Source: Candidatus Eiseniibacteriota bacterium
Lineage (GTDB): Bacteria; Eisenbacteria; RBG-16-71-46; SZUA-252
NCBI GenBank assembly: GCA_005893165.1
Contig: VBOR01000030.1
Span: 354 to 64,353, forward strand
Length of the DNA stretch: 64,000 bases
Direction: 5' to 3'
In this document: one piece after another, positions 1 through 11,707 of the stretch
Layout of the letters: each line of letters opens with the position of its first letter
Numbering within the stretch: the first letter of the stretch is position 1
Notes under the pieces: generated by a model
What the model was told of the DNA's origin: nothing
The model's database searches: none
Seen by the model: only the letters and a program-made list of their open reading frames with translations
Program-made: the position numbers and the translations under genes

Positions 1-884
1 TGAAGGCGTTGCGGGAAGAGGTCTCGGACAAGACCGCGGCGCTCATGCTCACGAACCCGAACACGCTCGGAATCTTCGAGCGCCAGGTCGGGGAGATCGC
101 GCGCATCGTGCACGACGCGGGCGCGCTCCTCTACCTGGACGGAGCGAACCTGAACGCGCTCGTCGGGCTCGCCAGCCCGGGCGCGATGGGATTCGATTTC
201 GCGCACATCAACCTCCACAAGACCTTCTCCACGCCGCACGGCGGCGGGGGTCCCGGAGGGGGCGTGCTCTGCGTCCGCGAGGAGCTGGCGCCCTTCCTTC
301 CGACCCCCGTGCTGGAGCGCACCGGCGAGCGCTACTCTTGGAATTACGACCGGCCGCGATCGATCGGGCGCGTCCACTCGTACTACGGAAATTTCGGCAT
401 GCTGGTGCGGGCGCTCTGTTACGTGAAGAGCCTTGGCGCCTCGGGGCTCGCCGAGGTGAGCCGCGAGGCCATCCTGAACGCCAATTATCTGAAAGCGCGC
501 CTCCGCGAGGCGTACACGCCTTCCCACGAGGGGTACTGCATGCATGAGTTCGTGCTCTCCGCCTCGAAGCAGAAGGCGCGAGGCGTGCGCGCGCTGGACA
601 TCGCGAAGCGCATCCTGGATTTCGGCATGCACGCGCCGACCACCTACTTTCCGCTCATCGTGGACGAGGCGCTGATGGTCGAGCCGACCGAGACGGAGAC
701 GAAGGCGGGTCTCGATGCCTACGCCGACGTGCTGCTCACGATCGACCGGGAGACGAAGAAAGATCCGGAGCGCGTGAAGGAGGCCCCGACCCAGACCCCG
801 GTGCGCCGCCTGGACGAGGCGCGCGCGGCGCGGAAGCTGGTCCTGACGTGGCGGGACCTCGAGGCAGAGGGTGCCGGCGCCTGA
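1..884 (+). CDS. glycine dehydrogenase (decarboxylating), C-terminal (subunit 2 / GcvPB-type) region; 5'-truncated at window edge
   Basis: Frame 3 is open from nt 3 and translates to ...NLHKTFSTPHGGGGPGGG..., the hallmark motif of the glycine-cleavage P-protein PLP domain. Stop at 882-884. Confidence 0.85.
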   Translation, partial: KALREEVSDKTAALMLTNPNTLGIFERQVGEIARIVHDAGALLYLDGANLNALVGLASPGAMGFDFAHINLHKTFSTPHGGGGPGGGVLCVREELAPFLPTPVLERTGERYSWNYDRPRSIGRVHSYYGNFGMLVRALCYVKSLGASGLAEVSREAILNANYLKARLREAYTPSHEGYCMHEFVLSASKQKARGVRALDIAKRILDFGMHAPTTYFPLIVDEALMVEPTETETKAGLDAYADVLLTIDRETKKDPERVKEAPTQTPVRRLDEARAARKLVLTWRDLEAEGAGA

Positions 885-1398
885 GACGACGGTTCCCGCG
901 TCCGCGGAGCCCGCGGCCAGGGAAGCGCTGGAGTGGTCCGTATGGCCGGCGCGCGAGCGGCCCTGGGCCGCCGGCGTGCTGCTCGCCTCGCTCGCGGTGC
1001 TGGCACTCCTGATCGTCCAGGCCACGGGGGACCGGGTGCTGGCCGTGGCGGCGCCGGTGTTTATCCTGATATCGGTCGGCTCGTTCATCTCGAGGACGCA
1101 CTACCGGCTCACGGCCCACGGGATCGAGGTGAAGGCGCTGGGGGTTTCCCGGGCGCGGCCGTGGGGAGAAATGCGCCGGGCGATCGTGGATGAGAACGGC
1201 GTCTTCCTGAGCCCGTTCGAGCAACGCAACTGGCTGGAAGCGTACCGAGGGGTGCGGCTTCCTTTCGGAGGGAATCGAGATCAAGTCCTGGCGTTTGTGG
1301 AATCGAAGCTCCCGGTCGTCGAGGGGCGCGGAGGATCCGGCGCGGGACGAAAGACCCGGCCCCGGCGCTCCGGTTCCTCCCCGGACGGCGGAGGATGA
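871..1398 (+). CDS. hypothetical membrane protein
   Basis: 175-aa ORF overlapping the gcvP stop by 14 nt, with hydrophobic segments (LLASLAVLALLIV, VFILISVGSF). No recognisable family. Confidence 0.45.
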   Translation: MPAPETTVPASAEPAAREALEWSVWPARERPWAAGVLLASLAVLALLIVQATGDRVLAVAAPVFILISVGSFISRTHYRLTAHGIEVKALGVSRARPWGEMRRAIVDENGVFLSPFEQRNWLEAYRGVRLPFGGNRDQVLAFVESKLPVVEGRGGSGAGRKTRPRRSGSSPDGGG

Positions 1399-1441
1399 GG
1401 CGCTCCTGGACAAGCTCGCGGATCTGACGGTGCGCCACCGG

Positions 1442-1717
1442 ATGACGGTGCCCGCGATCTTCTTTCTGGAGTCGGTGAAGCCCCTCTCCTTCGTGGGGAG
1501 TCAGGCCCTTCATTTCTTCGAGCCCATGGTGAACGCCTTCTTCCAGATGCGGGACTACGAGCGCTTCGCGATCTTGATGGAGCGTCGCGAGAATCTGGAA
1601 GTCTTGCTCGTGAAGATCGAGGCCCGGGACGACGCGGCGCGGCAGGAGGAGCGGGCCGTGCGTGAGCGCGAGCGCGCCGAGCGCGCGGCGCGCAAGCGGG
1701 GAAAGGACTCTTCGTGA
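1442..1717 (+). CDS. hypothetical small protein (alternative starts ATG 1295 or GTG 1430)
   Basis: Frame-2 ORF with coding-like C-terminal 92 aa (MTVPAIFFLESVKPLSFVGSQALHFFEPMVNAFFQMRDYERFAILMERRENLEVLLVKIE...). Its stop overlaps the GTG start of the downstream gene (GTGA). The 1295 ATG would overlap the upstream ORF by about 100 nt. Confidence 0.4.
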   Translation: MTVPAIFFLESVKPLSFVGSQALHFFEPMVNAFFQMRDYERFAILMERRENLEVLLVKIEARDDAARQEERAVRERERAERAARKRGKDSS

Positions 1718-3576
1718 GCCCCATCGATCCCGAGAAGCTGAACTCGGTCCTCGCGACCGACTGTGGCAGCACCACGACCAAGGCGATCCTGATCGAGCGC
1801 CGCGGCTCCGAGTATCGGCTCATCGTCCGCGGCGAAGCGCCCACCACGGTGGAGGCGCCGTTCGAGGACGTCACCCGCGGCGTGCTCAACGCGATCATGG
1901 AGGTGGAGGAGCTGGCCGGGCGGAAGATCCTGGACGGCGAGCGCATCATCACGCCCCAGAAGGGAACCGAAGGGGTGGACCTCTACATCTCCACCTCGAG
2001 CGCCGGCGGCGGACTCCAGATGATGGTCTCGGGCGTGGTGAAGAGCATGACCGGCGAGAGCGCGCAGCGCGCGGCGCTCGGCGCGGGCGCGATCGTGATG
2101 GACGTGATCGCGTCGAACGACGGGCGGCTGCCGCACGAGAAGATCAAGCGCATCCGGCACCTCCGCCCCGACATGATCCTCCTCTCCGGGGGCGTGGACG
2201 GCGGCACCACTTCGCACGTGGCGGAGATGGCGGAGCTTCTGGCGGCGGCGGATCCCAAGGCGCGGCTCGGCGCAGGGTACGAGCTGCCGGTGATCTACGC
2301 GGGCAACAAGGACGCGGTCGGGATCGTGAAGGAGCGGCTGGGGAAGAAGGTCGCGCTGGTGATCACGGACAATCTCCGGCCGGTGCTCGAGCGCGAGAAC
2401 CTGGGGCCCGCCCGCGACAAGATCCACGATCTCTTCATGGAGCACGTCATGGCGCACGCTCCCGGATACCGGAAGCTCATGACCTGGAGCCCGGTCCCGA
2501 TCATGCCGACGCCGGGCGCGGTGGGGCTCATCATCGAGACCATCGCCCGCGAGGGAGGGATCCAGGTCATCGGCGTGGACATCGGCGGGGCCACGACCGA
2601 CGTGTTCTCGGTCTTCCAGGGTGTGTTCAACCGCACGGTGAGCGCCAACCTCGGAATGAGCTACAGCGTGAGCAACGTGCTCGCCGAGGCGGGCCTCGCC
2701 AACATCCTCCGCTGGGTTCCGTTCGAGATCGAGGAGCGGGATCTCCGGAACCGGATCAAGAACAAGATGATCCGTCCCACCACGATTCCGCAGTCCCTCG
2801 AGGAGCTCATCATCGAGCAGGCCATCGCGAGGGAAGCGCTGCGGCTCGCCTTCGAGCAGCACAAGTCGCTCGCGGTGGGGCTCAAGGGAGTACAACAAGA
2901 ACGCACCATCTCCGACACGTTCGAGCAGACCCAGAGCGGGGAGACGCTGGTGCGCCTGGATCAGCTGGATCTCCTGGTCGGGAGCGGCGGCGTGCTCTCG
3001 CACGCGCCGCGGCGCGCCCAGGCCGCGCTCATGATGCTGGATGCCTTCCTGCCCGAGCACGTCACGGAGCTCGCCGTGGATTCGATCTTCATGATGCCTC
3101 AGCTCGGCGTGCTCTCCACGGTGCATCCGCGGGCCGCGAAGGAGGTCTTCGAGAAGGACTGCCTCATCCGTCTGGGTTCGGCGGTGGCGCCCGTGGGCCC
3201 GGGAAGGGACGGAGTGACCGCCCTGAGCGTCACCCTCGAGATGCCGGGCGGGAAGCGGGAGGAGCTCTCGGTCCCCTATGGGTATCTCCGCCTCATCCCG
3301 CTGGAGCTGGGGGAAACGGCGAAAGCGACGCTCCGCCCTGAGAAGGGGCTGGACGTCGGCGAGGGCAAGGGGAGGGAGCGCGTGGTCACGCTGAAGGGAG
3401 GCGTGGTCGGCCTGATGTTCGACGCGCGGGGCCGGCAGCCGTTCCGGCTTCCGGAGGATCGCGCGGCGCGCATCGCGAAGCTGAACCAGTGGAACGAAGC
3501 GCTGAGCATCTATCCTCCGCGAGACGCCGCGAAGATCTCGGAGGCGAACCTCCGTCCCGTCGAGGCGGGGGCCTGA
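1714..3576 (+). CDS. glutamate mutase L (MutL/GlmL)-like ASKHA-family ATPase (reactivase-like), 620 aa
   Basis: GTG start. N-terminal DCGSTTTKAILIE is an actin-fold phosphate-1-like motif similar to GlmL/MutL proteins (D-F-G-S-T-Y-T-K). The long ORF has coding-like composition. No glmS/glmE nearby. Confidence 0.6.
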   Translation: MSPIDPEKLNSVLATDCGSTTTKAILIERRGSEYRLIVRGEAPTTVEAPFEDVTRGVLNAIMEVEELAGRKILDGERIITPQKGTEGVDLYISTSSAGGGLQMMVSGVVKSMTGESAQRAALGAGAIVMDVIASNDGRLPHEKIKRIRHLRPDMILLSGGVDGGTTSHVAEMAELLAAADPKARLGAGYELPVIYAGNKDAVGIVKERLGKKVALVITDNLRPVLERENLGPARDKIHDLFMEHVMAHAPGYRKLMTWSPVPIMPTPGAVGLIIETIAREGGIQVIGVDIGGATTDVFSVFQGVFNRTVSANLGMSYSVSNVLAEAGLANILRWVPFEIEERDLRNRIKNKMIRPTTIPQSLEELIIEQAIAREALRLAFEQHKSLAVGLKGVQQERTISDTFEQTQSGETLVRLDQLDLLVGSGGVLSHAPRRAQAALMMLDAFLPEHVTELAVDSIFMMPQLGVLSTVHPRAAKEVFEKDCLIRLGSAVAPVGPGRDGVTALSVTLEMPGGKREELSVPYGYLRLIPLELGETAKATLRPEKGLDVGEGKGRERVVTLKGGVVGLMFDARGRQPFRLPEDRAARIAKLNQWNEALSIYPPRDAAKISEANLRPVEAGA

Positions 3577-3579
3577 GCG

Positions 3580-4707
3580 ATGGCGCACTCCTACACCCCC
3601 GGGCTCAAGGTGACCGGGTCGACGACGCTCCGGCGGGAGCGGAAGCTCCCTCTGCCCGGAGACGTGCTCGTCCAGGTCGGGCAGCGCGTCTCGGCCAGCG
3701 ACATCGTCGCGCGCACCCAGCTGCCCGGCAACGTGCAGGCCGTGAACGTCGCGAATCTTCTCGGCGTCCTTCCCGAGGACGTGGAGGAGTTCCTCACGAA
3801 GCCGGTCGGGAGCCACGTCGAGAAGGGAGAAGTGTTCGCGGAGAGCAAATCCTTCTTCGGCCTCTTCCGGTCCAAGTGCCACGCCCCGGTCCAAGGATCC
3901 ATCGAGAGCGTCTCGAAGGTGACCGGGCAGGTGCTCCTCCGCGAGGAGCCGATTCCGGTGGAGGTGGACGCCTACGTGGACGGGACGATCGTGGAGGTCC
4001 ACCCGCGCTCCGGCGTCACCGTCGAGACGCGGGGTGCCTTCATCCAGGGGATCTTCGGCGTCGGGGGCGAGACGTGCGGCGAGCTCCGCGTGAGCGTCTC
4101 CGGTCCCGAGGCGCCGCTCGAGGAGCGCGCGTTCGACGCCTCCTCGCGCGGGAAGGTCATCGTGGGGGGCGCGTACGTCACGACGGCCGTGCTCCGGAAA
4201 GCGATCGCGCAGGGAGTGAAGGCCGTGGTGGTGGGCGGATTCGACGATCACGATCTTCGCCAGCTCCTGGGGTACGACCTCGGGGTGGCCATCACCGGGT
4301 CCGAGGAGCTGGGCATCACGCTCATCGTGACCGAGGGATTCGGCTCGATTCCCATGGCCTCGAGGACCTTCGAGCTCCTGCGCTCCTGCGAAGGGCGCCA
4401 CGTGTCCGTGAGCGGCGCGACCCAGATCCGGGCCGGCGTGCAGCGCCCGGAGATCGTGGCCCCGGCGGCGGACGGAGCGGGAGCGCGGGAAGGAGCGCAC
4501 GATTCGGTCGAGGGCGGCTTGAAGACCGGGGATATGGTGCGGGTCATCCGCCAGCCCTACTTCGGACGGATCGGTAAGGTCACGGCGCTGCCACCCGAGC
4601 TGATGCCCCTCGAAACGGAAGCCAGGGTTCGCGTGCTGGAGGTGGATTTCGGAAACGGCTCCCGGACCCTTCTGCCCCGGGCGAACGTCGAAATGATCGA
4701 GTCGTGA
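3580..4707 (+). CDS. hypothetical protein with C-terminal KOW-like motif
   Basis: 375-aa ORF 3 nt after the upstream stop. The C-terminus GDMVRVIRQPYFGRIGKVTALP...VRVLEVDF resembles a KOW (NusG/L24-type) motif. Confidence 0.65.
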   Translation: MAHSYTPGLKVTGSTTLRRERKLPLPGDVLVQVGQRVSASDIVARTQLPGNVQAVNVANLLGVLPEDVEEFLTKPVGSHVEKGEVFAESKSFFGLFRSKCHAPVQGSIESVSKVTGQVLLREEPIPVEVDAYVDGTIVEVHPRSGVTVETRGAFIQGIFGVGGETCGELRVSVSGPEAPLEERAFDASSRGKVIVGGAYVTTAVLRKAIAQGVKAVVVGGFDDHDLRQLLGYDLGVAITGSEELGITLIVTEGFGSIPMASRTFELLRSCEGRHVSVSGATQIRAGVQRPEIVAPAADGAGAREGAHDSVEGGLKTGDMVRVIRQPYFGRIGKVTALPPELMPLETEARVRVLEVDFGNGSRTLLPRANVEMIES

Positions 4708-4719
4708 GCCGCTTGCGGC

Positions 4720-4748
4720 TTGACAACACTGCGTTCCGGGCCTACCGT
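4720..4748 (+). promoter_or_regulatory. sigma70-like promoter (TTGACA-17 bp-TACCGT) upstream of the 4796 membrane-protein operon
   Basis: Perfect -35 TTGACA at 4720-4725, a 17-nt spacer, and -10 TACCGT at 4743-4748, about 48 nt before the GTG start at 4796. An AGAGGAA RBS lies 11 nt upstream of the start. Confidence 0.4.
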
Positions 4749-4795
4749 CCGCCTCGAAGCGTCGCCGTTACACCCCCTAGAGGAATCGCCTCGGC

Positions 4796-5908
4796 GTGAA
4801 GAAATTCGCAGCCTGGATCCTCCTGCTGGTCCTCGGCGCTTCCTCCACCCCGGCATTTGGATTTCCCCTCAAGGCCGTCGATACACCCAACGACAAAGGC
4901 AACGACATCACCCTGAGCTGGCCCGCGCCGCCGCATCCTCCGCAGCAGTGGGTGGTGCTGCGCGTCGAGCCGGGCAAGAGCTTCGCGGCCATCGACACGA
5001 TCGGCGGGGAGCTGACCGGTTTCACGGACGAGACCGCGAAGAACGGCGTGAAGTACCGGTACCGGCTCGCAGGCCTCGGCGCGGGGGGTGCCGGTCTCTT
5101 CAGCGACTACTCGCAGGAGGCGGTCGCGGAGCCGAGCTGGTTCGATACCGGAAAGCGGAACGTCTTCATCGTGATCACCCTGTTCCTCGCCCTGGTGCTC
5201 TACTACATCGGGCAGGCCCAGCGCGGGAAGATCTGGAATTTCCGACCCATCGCCGGTCTCGCGGCGATCGAGGAAGCGATCGGCCGCTCCACCGAGATGG
5301 GGAAGGGGGTCCTCTACGTCCCCGGCGTGCAGGACATCGACGACATCCAGACGATCGCGAGCATGATCATCCTGGGCAACGTCGCGCGGATGACCGCGAA
5401 GTACGAGACGCCGCTCATGGTTCCCGCCAACTCTCCCGCCGTGTACACGGTCGCGGACGAGGTGGTGAAGGGAGCGTATTCGGACGTGGGACGCGCCGAC
5501 GCCTACCGCTCCGACCTGGTCCGGTACATCACGAGCGAGCAGTTCGCCTACGTGGCGGCCGTGAACGGCATGATGCTGCGCGAGCGCCCGGCCGCGAACC
5601 TCCTCCTCGGAGCGTTCTTCGCCGAGTCGCTCCTCCTCGCGGAGACGGGGCACGAGACGGGGGCCATCCAGATCGCGGGCACCGCCAACGTCCACCAGCT
5701 GCCCTTCTTCGTCGTCGCCTGCGACTACACGCTGATCGGGGAGGAGTACTACGCCGCCAGCGCCTATCTCTCGAAGGACGCGCGGCTCCTCGGGAGCCTC
5801 AAAGCCTCCGACACGGTCAAGATCCTCTTGATCCTCACGATCGTCCTCGGCTGCGTTCTTCTGACCCTCGGCAGCCCCGGCCTGGCCGAGTTCTTCGCCA
5901 CCCAGTGA
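4796..5908 (+). CDS. exported or membrane-anchored protein with an N-terminal FN3-like domain, two TM segments and a central globular domain
   Basis: GTG start. The signal peptide MKKFAAWILLLVLGASSTPAFG is followed by DITLSW...YRYRL (fibronectin-III-like), a TM segment FIVITLFLALVLYYI and a C-terminal TM segment ILLILTIVLGCVLLTL. Confidence 0.75.
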   Translation: MKKFAAWILLLVLGASSTPAFGFPLKAVDTPNDKGNDITLSWPAPPHPPQQWVVLRVEPGKSFAAIDTIGGELTGFTDETAKNGVKYRYRLAGLGAGGAGLFSDYSQEAVAEPSWFDTGKRNVFIVITLFLALVLYYIGQAQRGKIWNFRPIAGLAAIEEAIGRSTEMGKGVLYVPGVQDIDDIQTIASMIILGNVARMTAKYETPLMVPANSPAVYTVADEVVKGAYSDVGRADAYRSDLVRYITSEQFAYVAAVNGMMLRERPAANLLLGAFFAESLLLAETGHETGAIQIAGTANVHQLPFFVVACDYTLIGEEYYAASAYLSKDARLLGSLKASDTVKILLILTIVLGCVLLTLGSPGLAEFFATQ

Positions 5909-5918
5909 GGCCGAACGC

Positions 5919-6560
5919 ATGAAGCGCGAAATCCCTCTCCTGATCTCGATGGCCGCGGGGATCTTCGTGCTCATCGGCTTCTTCGTGCCCCATCCCGCCA
6001 TCCGGAACACCTACGACGACATCCAGCAGTGGGTGATCATCGTCGTGGCGTTCACCTATGTGCTGGGGATGGCAAATCTCATGCGCATCAACACGGAGCA
6101 GATCCAACGGCGGGCGAAGGACTGGCCGTACAAGCTGGCGCTCGTGCTGAGCCTGGTCGGCACCATGATCGTGGGCTTCTTCTTCTCGCGCGGGAGCCAC
6201 TACCTGGATGACAGAACCGGCTTCTCCTGGATCTATCTCACCTTCTATTCCTCGATGTCCTCGACCATGTTCTCGCTCCTGGCGTTCTTCATCGCCTCGG
6301 CCGCGTTCCGCGCGTTCCGCGTCCGGTCGGTCGAAGCCCTCCTCCTCGCGATCGCGGCGCTCATCCTCATGATCGGCCGCGTGCCGATCGGCAACGCGAT
6401 CCATCCGGCCATTCCGCAAATCGCCGACTGGCTCATGGAAATCCCACAGAACGCCGCCAAGCGCGGGATTCTCATGGGAGCGGCGCTGGGGGTCATCGCC
6501 ACCGGGTTCCGGGTGATCCTCGGGATCGAGCGGACGTACGGCTCGGAGGGCGGCGGGTGA
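5919..6560 (+). CDS. polytopic integral membrane protein, unknown family
   Basis: 213-aa ORF 10 nt downstream of the previous gene, with several hydrophobic helices. Confidence 0.7.
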   Translation: MKREIPLLISMAAGIFVLIGFFVPHPAIRNTYDDIQQWVIIVVAFTYVLGMANLMRINTEQIQRRAKDWPYKLALVLSLVGTMIVGFFFSRGSHYLDDRTGFSWIYLTFYSSMSSTMFSLLAFFIASAAFRAFRVRSVEALLLAIAALILMIGRVPIGNAIHPAIPQIADWLMEIPQNAAKRGILMGAALGVIATGFRVILGIERTYGSEGGG

Positions 6561-7399
6561 TCGCCTTCCTCGCGAATTTGCGCCGGCTCGACCGCCGGTG
6601 GATCTTCCTCATGGTCGGCCTGCTCGTCGTGGCTCCGCTCCTGACCGGCTTCCACATCGCTCCGGTGAAGCCGGGCTCCCGCGCGAAAGGATTCTACGAC
6701 GCGATCGAGAAGCTGAAGCCGGGCTCCACGGTGCTCCTCGCGGGGGATTACGACCCCGGCACCATCGCCGAGAACTACCCCATGCACCTCGCCGCCGCCC
6801 GGCAGCTCATGGCGCGGAACATCAAGATCATCGGGGTGGAGCTGTACCCCGGAGGCCCTCCGCTCGCGGACCAGGTGCTGCACCTCGCCGGAGCCGAATA
6901 CAAAAAGCGCGAGGGCTACGACTACGTGAACCTTGGATACAAGTCCGGGAACGAGGCGGTGATGTCGGCCATGGGAAGCGCGGGGATCCCGCGCACCTAC
7001 CCCGCGGACCGGAGCGGAACCCCCGTCGGACGAATCCCGGTGATGAAGGGAATCGAGAACTTCAGCCAGATCGCGATGATCGTGAGCGTCAGCGCGCGAT
7101 ATCCCGGGACCAAGGAGTGGGTGCAGCAGGTGGTCTCGCGATACCACGTGCCGATGATCGCGGGGGTCACGGCGGTGAGCGCGCCCGAATACTATCCCTA
7201 CCTCCAGGCCGGGCAGCTCCAGGGCCTCCTCGGGGGGATGGCAGGGGCCGCGGAGTACGAGGTCCTCGTGAACCACCCGGCCCTCGCGACGCGCGGGATG
7301 GACGCGCAGTCCCTGGCCCACATCTTCATCGCGCTCATGATCCTCCTCGGCAACCTGGCCGCGCTCCCGCAGCGCTCGCCCGGGGCGAGGCAATCGTAG
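6557..7399 (+). CDS. membrane-anchored protein (N- and C-terminal TM helices flanking a globular domain), unknown family
   Basis: 280-aa ORF with a 4-nt overlap with the upstream gene. It has the TM segments FLMVGLLVVAPLL and IFIALMILLGNLAAL. Confidence 0.7.
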   Translation: MIAFLANLRRLDRRWIFLMVGLLVVAPLLTGFHIAPVKPGSRAKGFYDAIEKLKPGSTVLLAGDYDPGTIAENYPMHLAAARQLMARNIKIIGVELYPGGPPLADQVLHLAGAEYKKREGYDYVNLGYKSGNEAVMSAMGSAGIPRTYPADRSGTPVGRIPVMKGIENFSQIAMIVSVSARYPGTKEWVQQVVSRYHVPMIAGVTAVSAPEYYPYLQAGQLQGLLGGMAGAAEYEVLVNHPALATRGMDAQSLAHIFIALMILLGNLAALPQRSPGARQS

Positions 7400-7400
7400 C

Positions 7401-7922
7401 GTGCACCTGAGCCACGATATCGGGATCTGGATCGCGGCGCTCCTCACGCTCGGGATCTACAGCTTCCTCTACAAGGACAATCCCGCCTACAAACTCTGTG
7501 AGCACCTGTTCGTCGGCGTCTCGGCGGGATATTACGTCGTGCTCATGTATTTCTCGGTCGTGAAGCCCAATCTCCTCGACCCGCTCTTCACCGTCTATCC
7601 GGCGCTGCGCATCACCGGATTCGGCCAGGGAGATCTGGTGGAGCAGATCCACGGAACCATGCTGCCGCTCTGGGTGCGCGGGAACCTGGGCACGACGATC
7701 GGGAACTGGCTCCTGGTGGGCGGGCTGCTGACCACGCTCATTTTTTTCTTCTTCTCGAAGGAGCACAAGGGGGCGCTCGGGGGAGCGGCGAGGATCGGCG
7801 TCTATTTCCTGATGGTGAGCTTCGGGGCTTCGTACGGATACACCGTGATGGCGCGTATCTCGCTCCTGATCGGACGTGTCATGTTTCTTCTTCATGATTG
7901 GCTGGGGGTGCTTCACCTCTAG
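7401..7922 (+). CDS. polytopic integral membrane protein, unknown family
   Basis: 173-aa ORF starting 2 nt after the upstream stop. It is hydrophobic throughout. Confidence 0.7.
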   Translation: MHLSHDIGIWIAALLTLGIYSFLYKDNPAYKLCEHLFVGVSAGYYVVLMYFSVVKPNLLDPLFTVYPALRITGFGQGDLVEQIHGTMLPLWVRGNLGTTIGNWLLVGGLLTTLIFFFFSKEHKGALGGAARIGVYFLMVSFGASYGYTVMARISLLIGRVMFLLHDWLGVLHL

Positions 7923-7939
7923 CGGGAGAGTCACCCGCC

Positions 7940-8788
7940 GTGCGTTCGCCGTCCGCGTTCTACCGCCTCCCGCACCTCGTTGGATCCGGGTCCTGGCACA
8001 TGGCTGCGGACGAGGCACTCTTGTCGTGGGCCTCCCGCGGCCCCACCCGCCTCGTCTTTCGAACCTATGCGTGGAACCGCCCCACGTTGAGCCTGGGGCG
8101 TACCGAGCGCTATCCCGAGGGCTGGGATGAGGGCGCGCTCGAGCGGGAGGGGATCGCGGTGGCGCGGCGGCCCACGGGTGGTGGCGCGGTGCTCCACGCC
8201 GAGGAGGTGACGTTCGCCCTGGCGGCCAGCGTCCCCGGGCCGTGGAGGCTGACGCCCCGGGGGTTCTCGAACAGGGCGGCGGAGGCCCTGTCCGCGGCAC
8301 TTCACGCATGCGGGCTGGCCGGCTCCCGCGTGGCGGAAGAAAGCTCGCGGGCGGTGCTCGATCCGGCCCAGCGTCCCGACGCCTCGAGCGCACGCGAGAG
8401 GACGCTCTGTTTCGCGAGGAGCGATCCGGGCGAGGTCGAGGCCAAAGGCTACAAGGTGGCCGGGCTCGCCTCGCGGTTCGGGCGCGCCGGCGCGCTCTGT
8501 CATGCTTCCGTTCCCCTGACCCGCCGCTCCCGCTCGATCGCCGAATTTCGGACCCGCTCGTTCCGCGAGCGCGAGGCGCTGGAGGGGCACGCGCGCTCCG
8601 TCGGGGAGCTTCTCGGAGCGCATCCGGCGGAGCTCGAGTCCCTGGGCAAGGCGATCGCCGCGGCCCTGGAGGCGGAGATCTCCCGGCGATTCCATGCGCT
8701 TCTCCTGCCCGCGTCCCTTGCGGACGTTGGAATCCTCGAGCATCCCGCCGCCGCGGTGGACGCGATGGCCGTTCCGGTCGCTCCATGA
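7940..8788 (+). CDS. lipoate-protein ligase / octanoyltransferase family protein (BPL/LPL catalytic domain)
   Basis: The RRPTGGGAVLH motif is typical of the LplA/LipB/BirA catalytic fold, and the N-terminus WHMAADEALL resembles LplA. GTG 7940 is chosen as the start; the listed ORF opens at 7898. Confidence 0.7.
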   Translation: MRSPSAFYRLPHLVGSGSWHMAADEALLSWASRGPTRLVFRTYAWNRPTLSLGRTERYPEGWDEGALEREGIAVARRPTGGGAVLHAEEVTFALAASVPGPWRLTPRGFSNRAAEALSAALHACGLAGSRVAEESSRAVLDPAQRPDASSARERTLCFARSDPGEVEAKGYKVAGLASRFGRAGALCHASVPLTRRSRSIAEFRTRSFREREALEGHARSVGELLGAHPAELESLGKAIAAALEAEISRRFHALLLPASLADVGILEHPAAAVDAMAVPVAP

Positions 8789-9249
8789 GCTGGGCGGAGG
8801 GCGGACGCGTGGGTTGGGTCGCGCTCACGGTCTACGCGATCGCGATGGCGTTCGTCGAGGCGGCATGCGTTGTGACGCTGAAGCAGCTCTACGTCCCGGG
8901 GGCCTGGGCTCCCCCCTTTCCGCCCCTTCCCGCGGCGGGACTCCGGCTCGAGCAGGCGCGCGAGATCGCGACCCTGATCATGATCGGCGCCGTGGCCGCG
9001 CTGGGCCGCCCGCCTCTCCGGGTCGTGCTGGCGCGCGGCCTCTGGGTGTTCGGTCTTTGGCTCCTTTTCTATTACGCTTTTCTCGAGATCGTGACGGGGT
9101 TCCCGGGGAGTCTCGCGGATCCCGACCTTGTATTTCTGGTGCCCCGGCCGTGGATCGCGCCTGTGTGGTTCGCGTGCCTGGTCTCGATCGTCTGCGCGGC
9201 GTTCGCGCGGATTCTGTCCCGAAAGGGAGGAGGTCGTACTCATGGCTGA
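8785..9249 (+). CDS. small integral membrane protein
   Basis: ATG at 8785 overlaps the upstream stop (ATGA). The 154-aa product has 4 predicted TM helices. Its 3' end overlaps the cspA start by 8 nt. Confidence 0.55.
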
Positions 9250-9445
9250 GACAGGAAAGGTGAAGTGGTTCAACGAGGCGAAGGGATTCGGGTTCATCGA
9301 GCGCCCGGGCGGACCGGACGTGTTCGTGCATTACAGCGCGATCGTCGGGGACGGATTCAAGAGCCTGAAGGAAGGGGACGAGGTCACGTTCGAGGTGACG
9401 CAGGGACCGAAGGGGCCGCAAGCGGCGAACGTCCAGAAGCGCTGA
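9242..9445 (+). CDS. cspA: cold-shock protein (CspA family, S1-like cold-shock domain)
   Basis: The product [52 protein letters not shown] contains the canonical RNP1/RNP2 motifs. An AAGGGAGGAGG RBS lies 8-10 nt upstream. Confidence 0.9.
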
Positions 9446-9549
9446 CGGCGCCGCAGAGCTCGCTACGCGCGGCTGCGGGGGCTCGCTCCGGTTCGTGTCC
9501 GGGGCCGTCCGTGGGAAGACACTCGTATGCGTGAACGGGGTCGCGGGTC

Positions 9550-11490
9550 CTAGTCGACGTCCGAGGCCCCGGGCGGGAGGTTCTTCCGCATCTCGAGTAT
9601 TGCGGTCATATGTCGGCGCACTGCTTCGGCCTCGGCGTCGCCGGGTCTGAGTCTCTCGACCCTATGCGAAAACCGCAGGGCCACTTCCACGTACCCCATA
9701 CTCACAAACCACCGCATGAGCTCGCGGACTGCAGCGGTGTCCTGGGCTGAAATCCCGAACGCACGCAACCCATGATCATCGAAAACTCGACGCTTAGGCT
9801 GCTCGGCCAGCACCGCCTGAAGGTCGGCAAGCGCAAGTCCCCGGGGCAAAGCGACAGTAGAATCTAAGACTGCCTCTGCCTCTCGATCTCGCCCGTCCGC
9901 GTAGAGGAACATCGCCGCCATGCGACGGTGGACACTCAGCAGCCCCGCGTTGACCTCCGGCAAATGCAGCAGCAGGTGAACAGCGTCATCCGCTTGTCCC
10001 GAGCCCGCCAGACCCATAGCATACGCGCGGACCGCGCCCTCGCACTGATGGTAGTCCGGCTCTGTTCGGCTCGCGGAGCGTGCGTACAGGGTGCGTGGAT
10101 CAATATCCACCACGTCCCGGTCAGGCGTGATCAGAATCAAAATCTCAGGACCGTCCGCCCGCTTTCTGTCCTCTGGTCGAACCGCCCGAAGAGTCCGGTC
10201 GCGGTACCAGATGCGCAGCACCTGGAACGCATACATGTGGATGTAGATGCTTCCTCTACCCCTCGCTTGGACCGAGAGAACGATTTGCGTGTTGGGGGCA
10301 AACCGCGGATAGAGCTGGCGAAAGCCCAATTCCACCTTTTTGAGAGCCGTGTCGACGAGGCGGAAATTCGATTCCGTGGTTTCTTCGGGGTTCTTCAGGT
10401 CGCCCCGGGACCACATGCCGAGTGTGAGGTAGATGCCGAGGACTGCCAGCTGCGTCCGAAGCGGAAGGGAGGCGAGCCCGAGGCCTGCCGCCATGGAGAA
10501 CCCGACTGCCGGGAAGGCGCCATAATAGGGGGCCCAGCCGCGAATCATGGCTGAGGTCAGAATGAGTGGTCCGGCGGCCAACACCGCTGCAAGGACGACG
10601 AACCGTCTTCGGGACACTGCTGGAAGGGAAGGCTCGTCTTCCAGGTCGGTGTTTCGGACGACAAAATACGTTGCGGCACCACCCACAAGAAGAAGAACAA
10701 CACCAAAGGCCGGCCAGGCCGGAAGCGGCCAGAACGCAGGTAGATTGAGCAGGGATATCAGATACCGGATGGCGTGCAGAGGCGATCGTTCCGGATGTTC
10801 GAGGCCCACGTAACCGGTCGCGCCACTTCGAAGGCCGCGCGACACAAGAATCCCAACGGCTGGATGAATCACGCTCCAGATAGCCACGAGTGCGGAATAC
10901 GCGGCAGCATGTATTGCGATTCGATACGGCTTTCGATCCAGAATCCAGTCAAAGAGGACAAGGGCCGGAATCACAGCAAGGGTCGTCTCTTTCGAGAGGA
11001 GCGCGGCGGCTACCGCCGCAAGAGCCGCACCGTTCCGCCGCGATAGGCGGAGATGAAGGGCGGCCAAGGAAAAGAGGATTGCCAGGAGATCCTGATCCAG
11101 GCAGGTCCAGGCGACCAAGGCAGGAGCAGCGCCGAGTCCCGCGAAGATCAGCCCTGCCATGATTCCCGCTTTTCTTCCAGCAAGTCGCGAAACAAAGGAG
11201 CCGAGCAGGATCACAATCGCGAGCAGAAAGCAGAGATTCAGGACGTGTCCCAGAGCGGCACCACCCCTCCCAGCGAGATCAAGCACTGAGAAGTAGACGC
11301 CGCGGGAAATGGGCCGATAGAAGGGATCATCGTGAGAGGGAAACCAATCATGGAGCTGGTAGAAAACAGCGTTGGTGAGAAAGTTGTAGTCGTCCCATAG
11401 GTAGGTGAACCCCACCGCGGGAATCGCGAAGATGGCCGCGACCACGGCCGGGGAATAGGGCAGGTATCGACGCATTTCAGCCCAGGACAT
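9550..11490 (-). CDS. GT-C fold membrane glycosyltransferase (PMT/ArnT-like, GT39/GT83-type) with C-terminal soluble TPR-like domain
   Basis: 646-aa protein with about 11 N-terminal TM helices, loop motifs typical of dolichyl/undecaprenyl-phosphate-sugar transferases, and a hydrophilic C-terminal third. Confidence 0.65.
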   Translation of the reverse strand: MSWAEMRRYLPYSPAVVAAIFAIPAVGFTYLWDDYNFLTNAVFYQLHDWFPSHDDPFYRPISRGVYFSVLDLAGRGGAALGHVLNLCFLLAIVILLGSFVSRLAGRKAGIMAGLIFAGLGAAPALVAWTCLDQDLLAILFSLAALHLRLSRRNGAALAAVAAALLSKETTLAVIPALVLFDWILDRKPYRIAIHAAAYSALVAIWSVIHPAVGILVSRGLRSGATGYVGLEHPERSPLHAIRYLISLLNLPAFWPLPAWPAFGVVLLLVGGAATYFVVRNTDLEDEPSLPAVSRRRFVVLAAVLAAGPLILTSAMIRGWAPYYGAFPAVGFSMAAGLGLASLPLRTQLAVLGIYLTLGMWSRGDLKNPEETTESNFRLVDTALKKVELGFRQLYPRFAPNTQIVLSVQARGRGSIYIHMYAFQVLRIWYRDRTLRAVRPEDRKRADGPEILILITPDRDVVDIDPRTLYARSASRTEPDYHQCEGAVRAYAMGLAGSGQADDAVHLLLHLPEVNAGLLSVHRRMAAMFLYADGRDREAEAVLDSTVALPRGLALADLQAVLAEQPKRRVFDDHGLRAFGISAQDTAAVRELMRWFVSMGYVEVALRFSHRVERLRPGDAEAEAVRRHMTAILEMRKNLPPGASDVD

Positions 11491-11707
11491 TTCAGAGGCA
11501 GCCTAATGTATGCGCACTTTTCCGTGCCATGCATTTTGGGCTGGGGAACTGGCCTGGTTGAGGGGCTACGGCTGGAACGCGTCTGCTTCGCCCCATACGA
11601 GCGGGCGAGAATAGCGAGCGTAGGTTGCGTGTCCGGGGGCTAGGGCGCGATGCGCTCGGCTCCGCGGAGCGAAGCTCCACGGCGGCGCCTATGATACCCT
11701 TCGGGGC

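Follow-up and report, generated by a model that had tools for sequence, protein, structure and literature searches.

A conserved four-gene DUF6754 membrane cassette and its linkage to an ASKHA-type ATPase pair in Candidatus Eisenbacteria and other phyla

The window analysed here is the whole stretch of 64,000 nucleotides (nt) read from contig VBOR01000030.1 of a Candidatus Eiseniibacteriota bacterium (assembly GCA_005893165.1). It contains a cassette of four membrane-protein genes, g1 to g4, described in an original prediction as a four-gene operon of uncharacterised membrane proteins, headed by an exported domain like fibronectin type III (FN3) and preceded by its own promoter. The cassette and its leader comprise the following features (TM, transmembrane; aa, amino acids).

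4720-4748, + strand: predicted internal sigma-70-type promoter, with -35 TTGACA at 4720-4725, a 17-nt spacer and -10 TACCGT (TAnnnT class) at 4743-4748
4780-4785, + strand: Shine-Dalgarno sequence GAGGAA, 10 nt 5' of the GTG start of g1
4796-5908, + strand: g1, 370 aa, GTG start; signal peptide, predicted periplasmic FN3 domain, TM helix, predicted cytoplasmic DUF6754 domain, TM helix
5919-6560, + strand: g2, 213 aa, ATG start; six TM helices, predicted N-in/C-in
6557-7399, + strand: g3, 280 aa, GTG start; TM helix, Rossmann-like alpha/beta domain (probably periplasmic), TM helix
7401-7922, + strand: g4, 173 aa, GTG start; polytopic, with an in-frame 41-aa deletion after residue ~64 (nt ~7592)

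Four tightly spaced or overlapping + strand genes had been predicted, and all four open reading frames (ORFs) are present where they had been placed. Their GC content at third codon positions (GC3) is 0.84-0.91 in a window of 68% GC, which marks them as genuine genes. The spacing is tight, as predicted: a gap of 10 nt lies between g1 and g2, g2 and g3 overlap by 4 nt (GTGA), and a single nt separates g3 from g4. Profile comparison by hhalign gives a probability below 1% both for g1 against g3 and for g2 against g4. Paralogy within the cassette is therefore rejected, and g1 to g4 are four proteins without mutual kinship.

The promoter TTGACA-17-TACCGT that had been read at 4720-4748 holds up in comparison. 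Of 33 related loci, 29 carry the motif TTGAC[AT]-N16-18-TAnnnT no more than 150 nt past the stop codon of the preceding gene, whereas shuffled sequences lead one to expect 0.03 loci. The loci that carry it include distant Eisenbacteria and two Zixibacteria, and TACCGT, TACGGT, TAGCTT, TAGGGT, TAGCGT and TATCGT all occur as -10 elements. GAGGAA or GGAGG and the GCGTGA start context are also kept across the aligned leaders of related loci. The predicted promoter is thus supported by phylogenetic footprinting. A generic strict sigma-70 scanner reports no site within 3500-9500, because TACCGT agrees with TATAAT at only three of six positions (T1, A2 and T6). An Rfam search of positions 1-10000 gave no riboswitch or leader RNA 5' of g1, and no terminator-like site was found within 3500-9500.

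Residues 112-364 of g1 belong to the Pfam family DUF6754 (PF20539), with an E value of 2.6e-110 and 368 bits against a gathering cut-off of 27. Residues 26-111 are modelled by AlphaFold as a beta-sandwich with a predicted local distance difference test score (pLDDT) of ~90, and Foldseek matches this model to FN3 domains (TM-score to target 0.6-0.76, probability 1.00). The Pfam model fn3 gives no match in the g1 of the window, and the FN3 fold is recognised by structure comparison instead. Hydropathy analysis identifies an N-terminal signal-like helix and TM helices at ~121-141 and ~341-359. Hydropathy, AlphaFold, Foldseek and Pfam therefore agree with the layout originally proposed for this protein, namely a signal peptide, an FN3-like module, a TM helix, a domain of about 200 aa and a second TM helix. 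The FN3 domain and the TM helices are modelled confidently despite a shallow alignment. The stretch that follows the first TM helix is rich in Arg and Lys in all homologues (ARxGxxxFIRxIxG). Because the FN3 domain is exported and this stretch is basic, the DUF6754 domain is predicted to lie in the cytoplasm; the topologies given here for the other proteins of the system follow from the same positive-inside rule. Residues invariant across phyla include R150, R164, E167, E283, Q292, C309, D310, E316 and E317.

More than 8,000 homologues of g1 (clusters at 90% identity) were scored. The close ones are named either DUF6754 domain-containing protein or fibronectin type III domain-containing protein in the databases. 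Although g1 is a clear member of DUF6754, that family is a catalogue entry without a function, and neither the cassette nor its wider gene context appears in the annotation. No paper in the searched literature mentions DUF6754 or PF13941, the Pfam family of an ATPase described below. The extracytoplasmic head is the most variable part of g1: it is an FN3 domain here, reaches ~740 aa in Cloacimonadota, and is absent in Planctomycetota, Armatimonadota and a Bacillota metagenome-assembled genome (MAG). The description of the operon as headed by an FN3 domain is therefore correct for the window, where the fold is real, but does not carry over to other phyla, in which the domain is replaced or absent. 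Judged from these sequences, the FN3 head is an accessory that varies by lineage and no defining part of the system. One Eisenbacteria MAG (GFS_6454; L002 367-1470, L004 8001-9116) has a second DUF6754 gene, whose product is 85% identical to the window protein and which lies on a 5.6-kb contig with no g2-g4 after it.

The remaining three proteins have no Pfam or NCBIfam match. Genes 2 and 4 had been called polytopic membrane proteins, and hydropathy bears this out. It finds six hydrophobic helices in g2, whose distribution of Lys and Arg fits an N-in/C-in arrangement, and a polytopic g4 that is short of 41 residues. Conserved motifs are MFSLLAFYIASAAYRAFRxRS and PNxAAKRGI in g2, and SFLYKDNPxYRFxEHLFVG, YFFFSxEH and FGAxFGxTVMARxSLLIGR in g4. 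The g4 of the window differs from every relative by an in-frame deletion of 123 nt with its junction near nt 7592, which removes a two-helix hairpin. The relatives are 200-280 aa long, and the closest (L001 10604-11245, 214 aa) is 98% identical outside the gap. The deletion is either a recent genuine event or an assembly artefact. For g3, the AlphaFold model (pLDDT 94.3) consists of a TM helix, a three-layer alpha/beta domain of Rossmann-like fold and a second TM helix, which matches the earlier description of terminal TM helices around a globular domain. Both short tails of g3 are strongly basic (DRRW... and ...RRRxR), and this suggests that the domain between the two helices lies outside the cytoplasm.

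Such a topology, with a periplasmic domain held between two TM helices, is typical of envelope assembly factors. The cassette may accordingly be viewed as an envelope-biogenesis or surface-anchoring scaffold that positions or assembles periplasmic or surface structures through the variable ectodomain of g1. The predicted topology of g3 is consistent with this idea, as is the range of the g1 ectodomain from none through FN3 to ~740 aa, and large proteins with IPT/TIG, FG-GAP or CARDB domains adjoin the cassette in some lineages. However, these adhesin-like neighbours are lineage-specific and lie outside the conserved core, and many cassettes have no ectodomain at all. A scaffold is therefore considered quite improbable as the function of the cassette.

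A scan for g1 over one genome per GTDB species gave 69 loci. They are mostly from Candidatus Eisenbacteria, and the others come from Zixibacteria, Cloacimonadota, Neomarinimicrobiota, Planctomycetota, Armatimonadota, the Bacillota MAG and unclassified bacteria. Gene order was compared by tblastn in the 52 loci with enough downstream sequence. In 42 of these, g2, g3 and g4 follow directly 3' of g1 in that order. Nine more loci have g3 and g4 together with an ORF between g1 and g3. The one such ORF that was tested (L061), of the Armatimonadota type, is recognised by hhalign as a divergent g2 with a probability of 100%. The last locus is a lone second copy of g1. Counted together, 51 of the 52 loci keep the order g1-g2-g3-g4, and they represent Eisenbacteria, Zixibacteria, Cloacimonadota, Marinimicrobia, Planctomycetota, Armatimonadota and the Bacillota MAG. 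Loss of gene order had been named in the original prediction as an observation that would speak against an operon-encoded complex; the order is conserved across phyla.

The unit that had been proposed is nevertheless too small. While g1 to g4 form a coupled cassette as expected, four genes directly upstream (871-4707) travel along with it, and the distribution of these genes suggests that the functional unit to which they all belong has eight members. The upstream genes of this module are listed below (BSH, barrel-sandwich-hybrid).

871-1398, + strand: u871, small membrane protein with a two-TM hairpin (helices at 33-74) and a predicted cytoplasmic tail of ~75 aa; GC3 0.82
1295-1717, + strand: u1295, small conserved protein with a core of ~70 aa from ~nt 1400
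1714-3576, + strand: GlmL/MutL-like ASKHA ATPase, 620 aa, with a C-terminal extension of ~140 aa; its start overlaps the stop of u1295 by 4 nt
3580-4707, + strand: BSH-KOW protein, 375 aa, with an N-terminal BSH domain, a central alpha/beta region and a C-terminal KOW/SH3-like motif

The two small proteins are conserved parts of the module. Homologues of u871 adjoin it in Eisenbacteria, Planctomycetota, Armatimonadota and metagenome loci. The tail of u871 resembles Pfam bPH_6 in 2 of 17 members only, with a best E value of 2e-4, and because of this weak match the label PH-like is tentative. The core motif of u1295, LLxRxA...PAxLFLESxKPLxFxGSQAL...ERFAxLLExRENxExLL, occurs at 39 loci in genomes and at many in metagenomes, either immediately 5' of the ATPase or immediately 5' of g1. 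No family in Pfam or NCBIfam matches u1295, and the overlap of its maximal ORF with u871 leaves its true start uncertain.

The ATPase belongs to Pfam family MutL (PF13941) over residues 12-483 (E value 2.4e-126). The nucleotide-binding motifs of the ASKHA fold are invariant: D16-C-G-S-T-T-T-K23, D289-I-G-G-A-T-T-D296 and G423-S-G-G426. Its ASKHA-type domain matches PF13941 from end to end, a likeness to GlmL, the glutamate mutase accessory, and Or-4 of ornithine degradation (PF13941, NF040745, NF040744). In contrast to these, however, it carries the C-terminal extension, has a BSH-KOW protein as its partner or fusion partner and is encoded in linkage with membrane genes. It scores below the NCBIfam cut-offs for GlmL (229 against 475 bits), Or-4 (208 against 600) and glmL_fam (162 against 204). 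No B12-dependent mutase (glmS/glmE, oraS/oraE) flanks the window locus, and none recurs as a family in the clustered loci of at least 6 kb. Because of these scores, the extension and the lack of a B12 mutase alongside, the assignment of the ATPase as a GlmL or Or-4 orthologue is rejected. The characterised GlmL/MutL has been described (PMC4682846) as a soluble chaperone for the reactivation of glutamate mutase, and a search of the literature on Eisenbacteria and GlmL gave nothing relevant beyond GlmL described as a chaperone. Residues ~490-572, within the extension, show a faint profile match (E value ~1) to a part of ribosomal protein L2 that we take to be its SH3-like barrel, and both cytoplasmic proteins may end in small beta-barrels.

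The BSH-KOW protein of the window matches Pfam weakly (RnfC_N, E value 3e-4, 21.1 bits against a gathering score of 25.6; KOW, E value 4.5e-3), and the family member P0489 passes both gathering scores. Its relatives number 2,669 among 1.8 billion representative proteins, 580 of them at an E value below 1e-30. In two of the proteins found, P0384 (995 aa) and P0486 (1003 aa), a MutL-like ATPase at the N-terminus is fused to BSH-KOW at the C-terminus. Given such fusions, ATPase and BSH-KOW almost certainly function as a single unit. The ATPase has a mean column identity of 67% across phyla and BSH-KOW one of 64%, against 36-45% for the membrane proteins.

Linkage between these genes and the cassette persists in at least four gene orders or orientations. 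The order is u871-u1295-ATPase-BSH-[promoter]-g1..g4 in Eisenbacteria, ATPase-BSH-u1295-g1..g4 in Marinimicrobia, and (u871)-u1295-g1..g4-ATPase-BSH in a Planctomycetota MAG and an unclassified lineage; in one metagenome contig the module genes stand in divergent orientation. The ATPase pair is present in 18 of the 26 genome loci with wide flanks. Genes that stay linked despite rearrangement are classically taken to be functionally coupled. Beyond the eight genes, neighbours vary by phylum: gcvT-H-P1-P2 and lplA in Eisenbacteria; pyrD, cdsA and a lipid kinase gene in Marinimicrobia; truB in Planctomycetales; fpg, rpsA and coaE in another lineage; and peptidase genes in the Bacillota MAG. When all ORFs from loci of 6 kb or more were clustered, no further widely shared family emerged. 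A mobile-element origin is rejected, as plasmid comparison gave no match for the module.

The cassette is also duplicated as a whole. In 11 of 112 loci, HMMs (hidden Markov models) built from our own alignments detect tandem arrays of two to three [g1-g2-g3-g4] units beside one MutL-BSH pair; these loci include Zixibacteria (L047, L065) and metagenome contigs (L087, L094, L099, L113, L131). All four proteins differ from cassette to cassette within an array, and g1 to g4 duplicate only as a whole cassette. The paralogues are 46-64% (g1), 42-51% (g2), 37-47% (g3) and 39-54% (g4) identical. Since identity lies between 37 and 64% in all four proteins, the duplications are old and the four proteins have diverged together. 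A stoichiometric complex that sets specificity and draws on a common energiser would be expected to behave in this way. Together with translational coupling and conserved order, whole-cassette duplication with co-divergence makes it likely that g1 to g4 form a four-subunit membrane complex.

Gene neighbourhoods also bear on whether the ATPase pair works with this complex at all. The cassette may instead be an autonomous membrane complex, such as a secondary transporter, a channel or a sensor, next to which ATPase and BSH-KOW form a separate, co-located enzyme or chaperone that acts, for example, on the compound handled by the cassette. Cassettes without the pair within 8 kb (L037, L039, L042-44, L046, L060, L067, L069) are consistent with such independence, and so are solitary BSH-KOW genes beside accA, era, dnaK-grpE or topA. 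The internal promoter would permit separate expression of g1 to g4, and the characterised GlmL/MutL is described as soluble (PMC4682846). However, the linkage of cassette and pair persists through several rearrangements in distant phyla, and the multi-cassette arrays always stand beside one ATPase pair. Moreover, the surrounding genes include no recurrent B12 mutase or other soluble enzyme, and the ATPase falls under all GlmL and Or-4 cut-offs. Autonomy of the cassette is thus judged unlikely. Lone BSH-KOW genes have a companion of another kind. In nine loci (L115 11070-12014, L111 11126-12007, L149 11128-11964 and six other metagenome loci) such a gene is directly followed by an ORF of 280-314 aa of unknown family, which often overlaps its stop.

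Comparison with known systems yields partial likenesses. The original prediction had recognised no transporter, secretion or respiratory family among the four proteins. In line with this, searches of Pfam, NCBIfam, PADLOC and PDB sequences and a fold search assign g1 to g4 to no transporter, secretion, respiratory or defence family. PDB sequence and profile searches with g1 to g4, BSH-KOW and the MutL-like ATPase gave no significant match (best E value 0.03). The PADLOC defence models give no match, with u1295 marginal only (E value 0.009), and an anti-phage role is rejected on this ground. No ABC ATPase (PF00005) or recognised permease family is found among the eight module proteins; the only hit is a match of g2 to TMD0_ABC, below threshold (E value 0.05, 14 bits against 27).

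The module resembles Rnf and Nqr in that a peripheral cytoplasmic protein with a barrel-sandwich domain of the RnfC_N/NQRA_N type is encoded beside several small membrane subunits. However, the likeness is confined to that one domain, because the module has no Fe-S, flavin or NADH domain and no homologue of RnfD/G/E/A or NqrB-F; searches of all module proteins found no Rnf/Nqr membrane family and no Fer4 or flavin domain. In ECF and ABC transporters, one energising module is shared among several membrane components. Several divergent membrane cassettes beside a single ATPase unit follow the same genetic logic, and this is an analogy only: the module has no ABC ATPase and no homology to EcfT, EcfS or ABC permeases, and its ATPase has another fold. 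The system is placed in no known kind and appears to be a new kind of system.

From these observations we infer a four-protein assembly that is coupled to the ATPase pair and serves in translocation. In this model, g2 and g4 would form the polytopic core of a complex in the cytoplasmic membrane. Its g1 subunit would present the variable domain, here FN3, to the periplasm and keep the strongly conserved DUF6754 domain of about 200 aa in the cytoplasm, and g3 would hold its Rossmann-like domain at the periplasmic face between two TM helices. The cassette would cooperate with the ATPase and BSH-KOW pair, with u871 and u1295 as small accessories. The pair would dock from the cytoplasm, with the DUF6754 domain as its most plausible site, because no other large part of the cassette is cytoplasmic and none is as conserved. 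ATP binding and hydrolysis would then power a cycle of conformational changes by which a cargo is moved or assembled across the membrane. Specificity would reside in the cassette, and several cassettes could share one energiser.

The model as a whole, a four-protein membrane cassette within an eight-gene envelope system coupled to the ATPase pair, is held with a probability of about 0.45. Translocation as the true function is a tentative proposal, with the odds clearly against it. The same caution applies to a doubtful but far-reaching corollary, namely a new class of translocation machine in which interchangeable cassettes are powered by an ATPase of the actin/Hsp70 fold through a barrel-sandwich/KOW adaptor. 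Such a class would be widespread in candidate phyla of the FCB group, Planctomycetota and Armatimonadota and absent from model organisms. If true, a whole type of envelope machinery would have been overlooked, being confined to poorly cultured phyla, and ATP would be coupled to a membrane process by an ASKHA-fold ATPase rather than by an ABC, P-type, AAA+ or rotary one. In this analysis, four anonymous ORFs become an eight-part system with predicted topology, one high-confidence subunit model, invariant residues, natural fusions and multi-cassette arrays.

Several points weigh against this model. In 8 of the 26 genome loci, the 8-10 kb around the cassette lack the ATPase pair, and in ~12 of 42 long metagenome loci BSH-KOW is a solitary gene amid housekeeping genes, so operon-level coupling is not obligatory. 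To our knowledge, no ASKHA ATPase energises a membrane transporter. The membrane proteins g2 and g4 have few conserved charges at mid-membrane positions, and because g4 is shortened in the window, this copy may be impaired. AlphaFold models the DUF6754 domain, on which the ATPase pair is proposed to dock, with a pLDDT of only 30-60 from a shallow alignment (at least 63% identity), too low for its fold to be interpreted. Remote kinship of the module to a known superfamily may exist. Finally, protein contacts within the module and a transported cargo are predictions.

On its downstream side, the cassette of the window is followed by one more gene in the same orientation.

7940-8788, + strand: lplA/lipB-like lipoate-protein ligase gene (Pfam LplA-B_cat, E value 2.5e-15), probable GTG start at 7940; a neighbour outside the conserved module

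Its GTG lies 17 nt past the stop of g4 and is preceded by GGGAGAG at 7924-7930, 9 nt 5' of the start, and the cassette transcript probably runs on into it. The gene is a neighbour in the Eisenbacteria-type lineage only. In that lineage, the module is inserted between gcvT-gcvH-gcvP1-gcvP2 and the lplA-like ligase gene (window 9-884 and 7940-8788; L070 1765-14043). It splits an otherwise glycine-cleavage and lipoylation gene string, an arrangement shared by the more distant contigs L105 and L124.

This position raises the idea that the module is an accessory of glycine cleavage or protein lipoylation, with the BSH protein as a lipoyl-type carrier. The location of all eight genes within the string is consistent with it, and BSH is the fold of lipoyl and biotinyl domains. 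However, no other phylum has gcv or lplA genes beside the module. The stretch of BSH-KOW in which, judging by sequence pattern, the hairpin of a lipoyl or biotinyl domain would be expected reads SFFGLF; it is hydrophobic and has no conserved Lys, and the BSH domain is therefore not thought to be such a carrier. Because the gcv/lplA context is limited to one lineage, a link to glycine cleavage or lipoylation is rejected as a general explanation, and the idea is very improbable. Coupling of the cassette to the ATPase pair stays the preferred model for the module.

Lineage-specific genes adjoin the module elsewhere. In Planctomycetota-type loci, one or two proteins of ~1,200 aa are encoded just 5' of the cassette, one of them with IPT/TIG domains (L043 3067-6666, L042 85-7087, L052 304-3834, L068 3328-7146), and an unknown protein of ~190 aa is also encoded 5' of the cassette in L042-L044. 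Both may be lineage-specific partners.

Further downstream in the window, at 8789-11707, lplA and an iPGM gene are ~2.1 kb further apart than in any related locus. This extra DNA has a GC content of 57-63%, against ~70% in the flanks. It holds a minus-strand ORF (9550-11490) for a polytopic membrane protein of 646 aa with no Pfam match and no homologue in 150 fetched loci. From its composition and absence elsewhere, this segment looks like a lineage-specific insertion.

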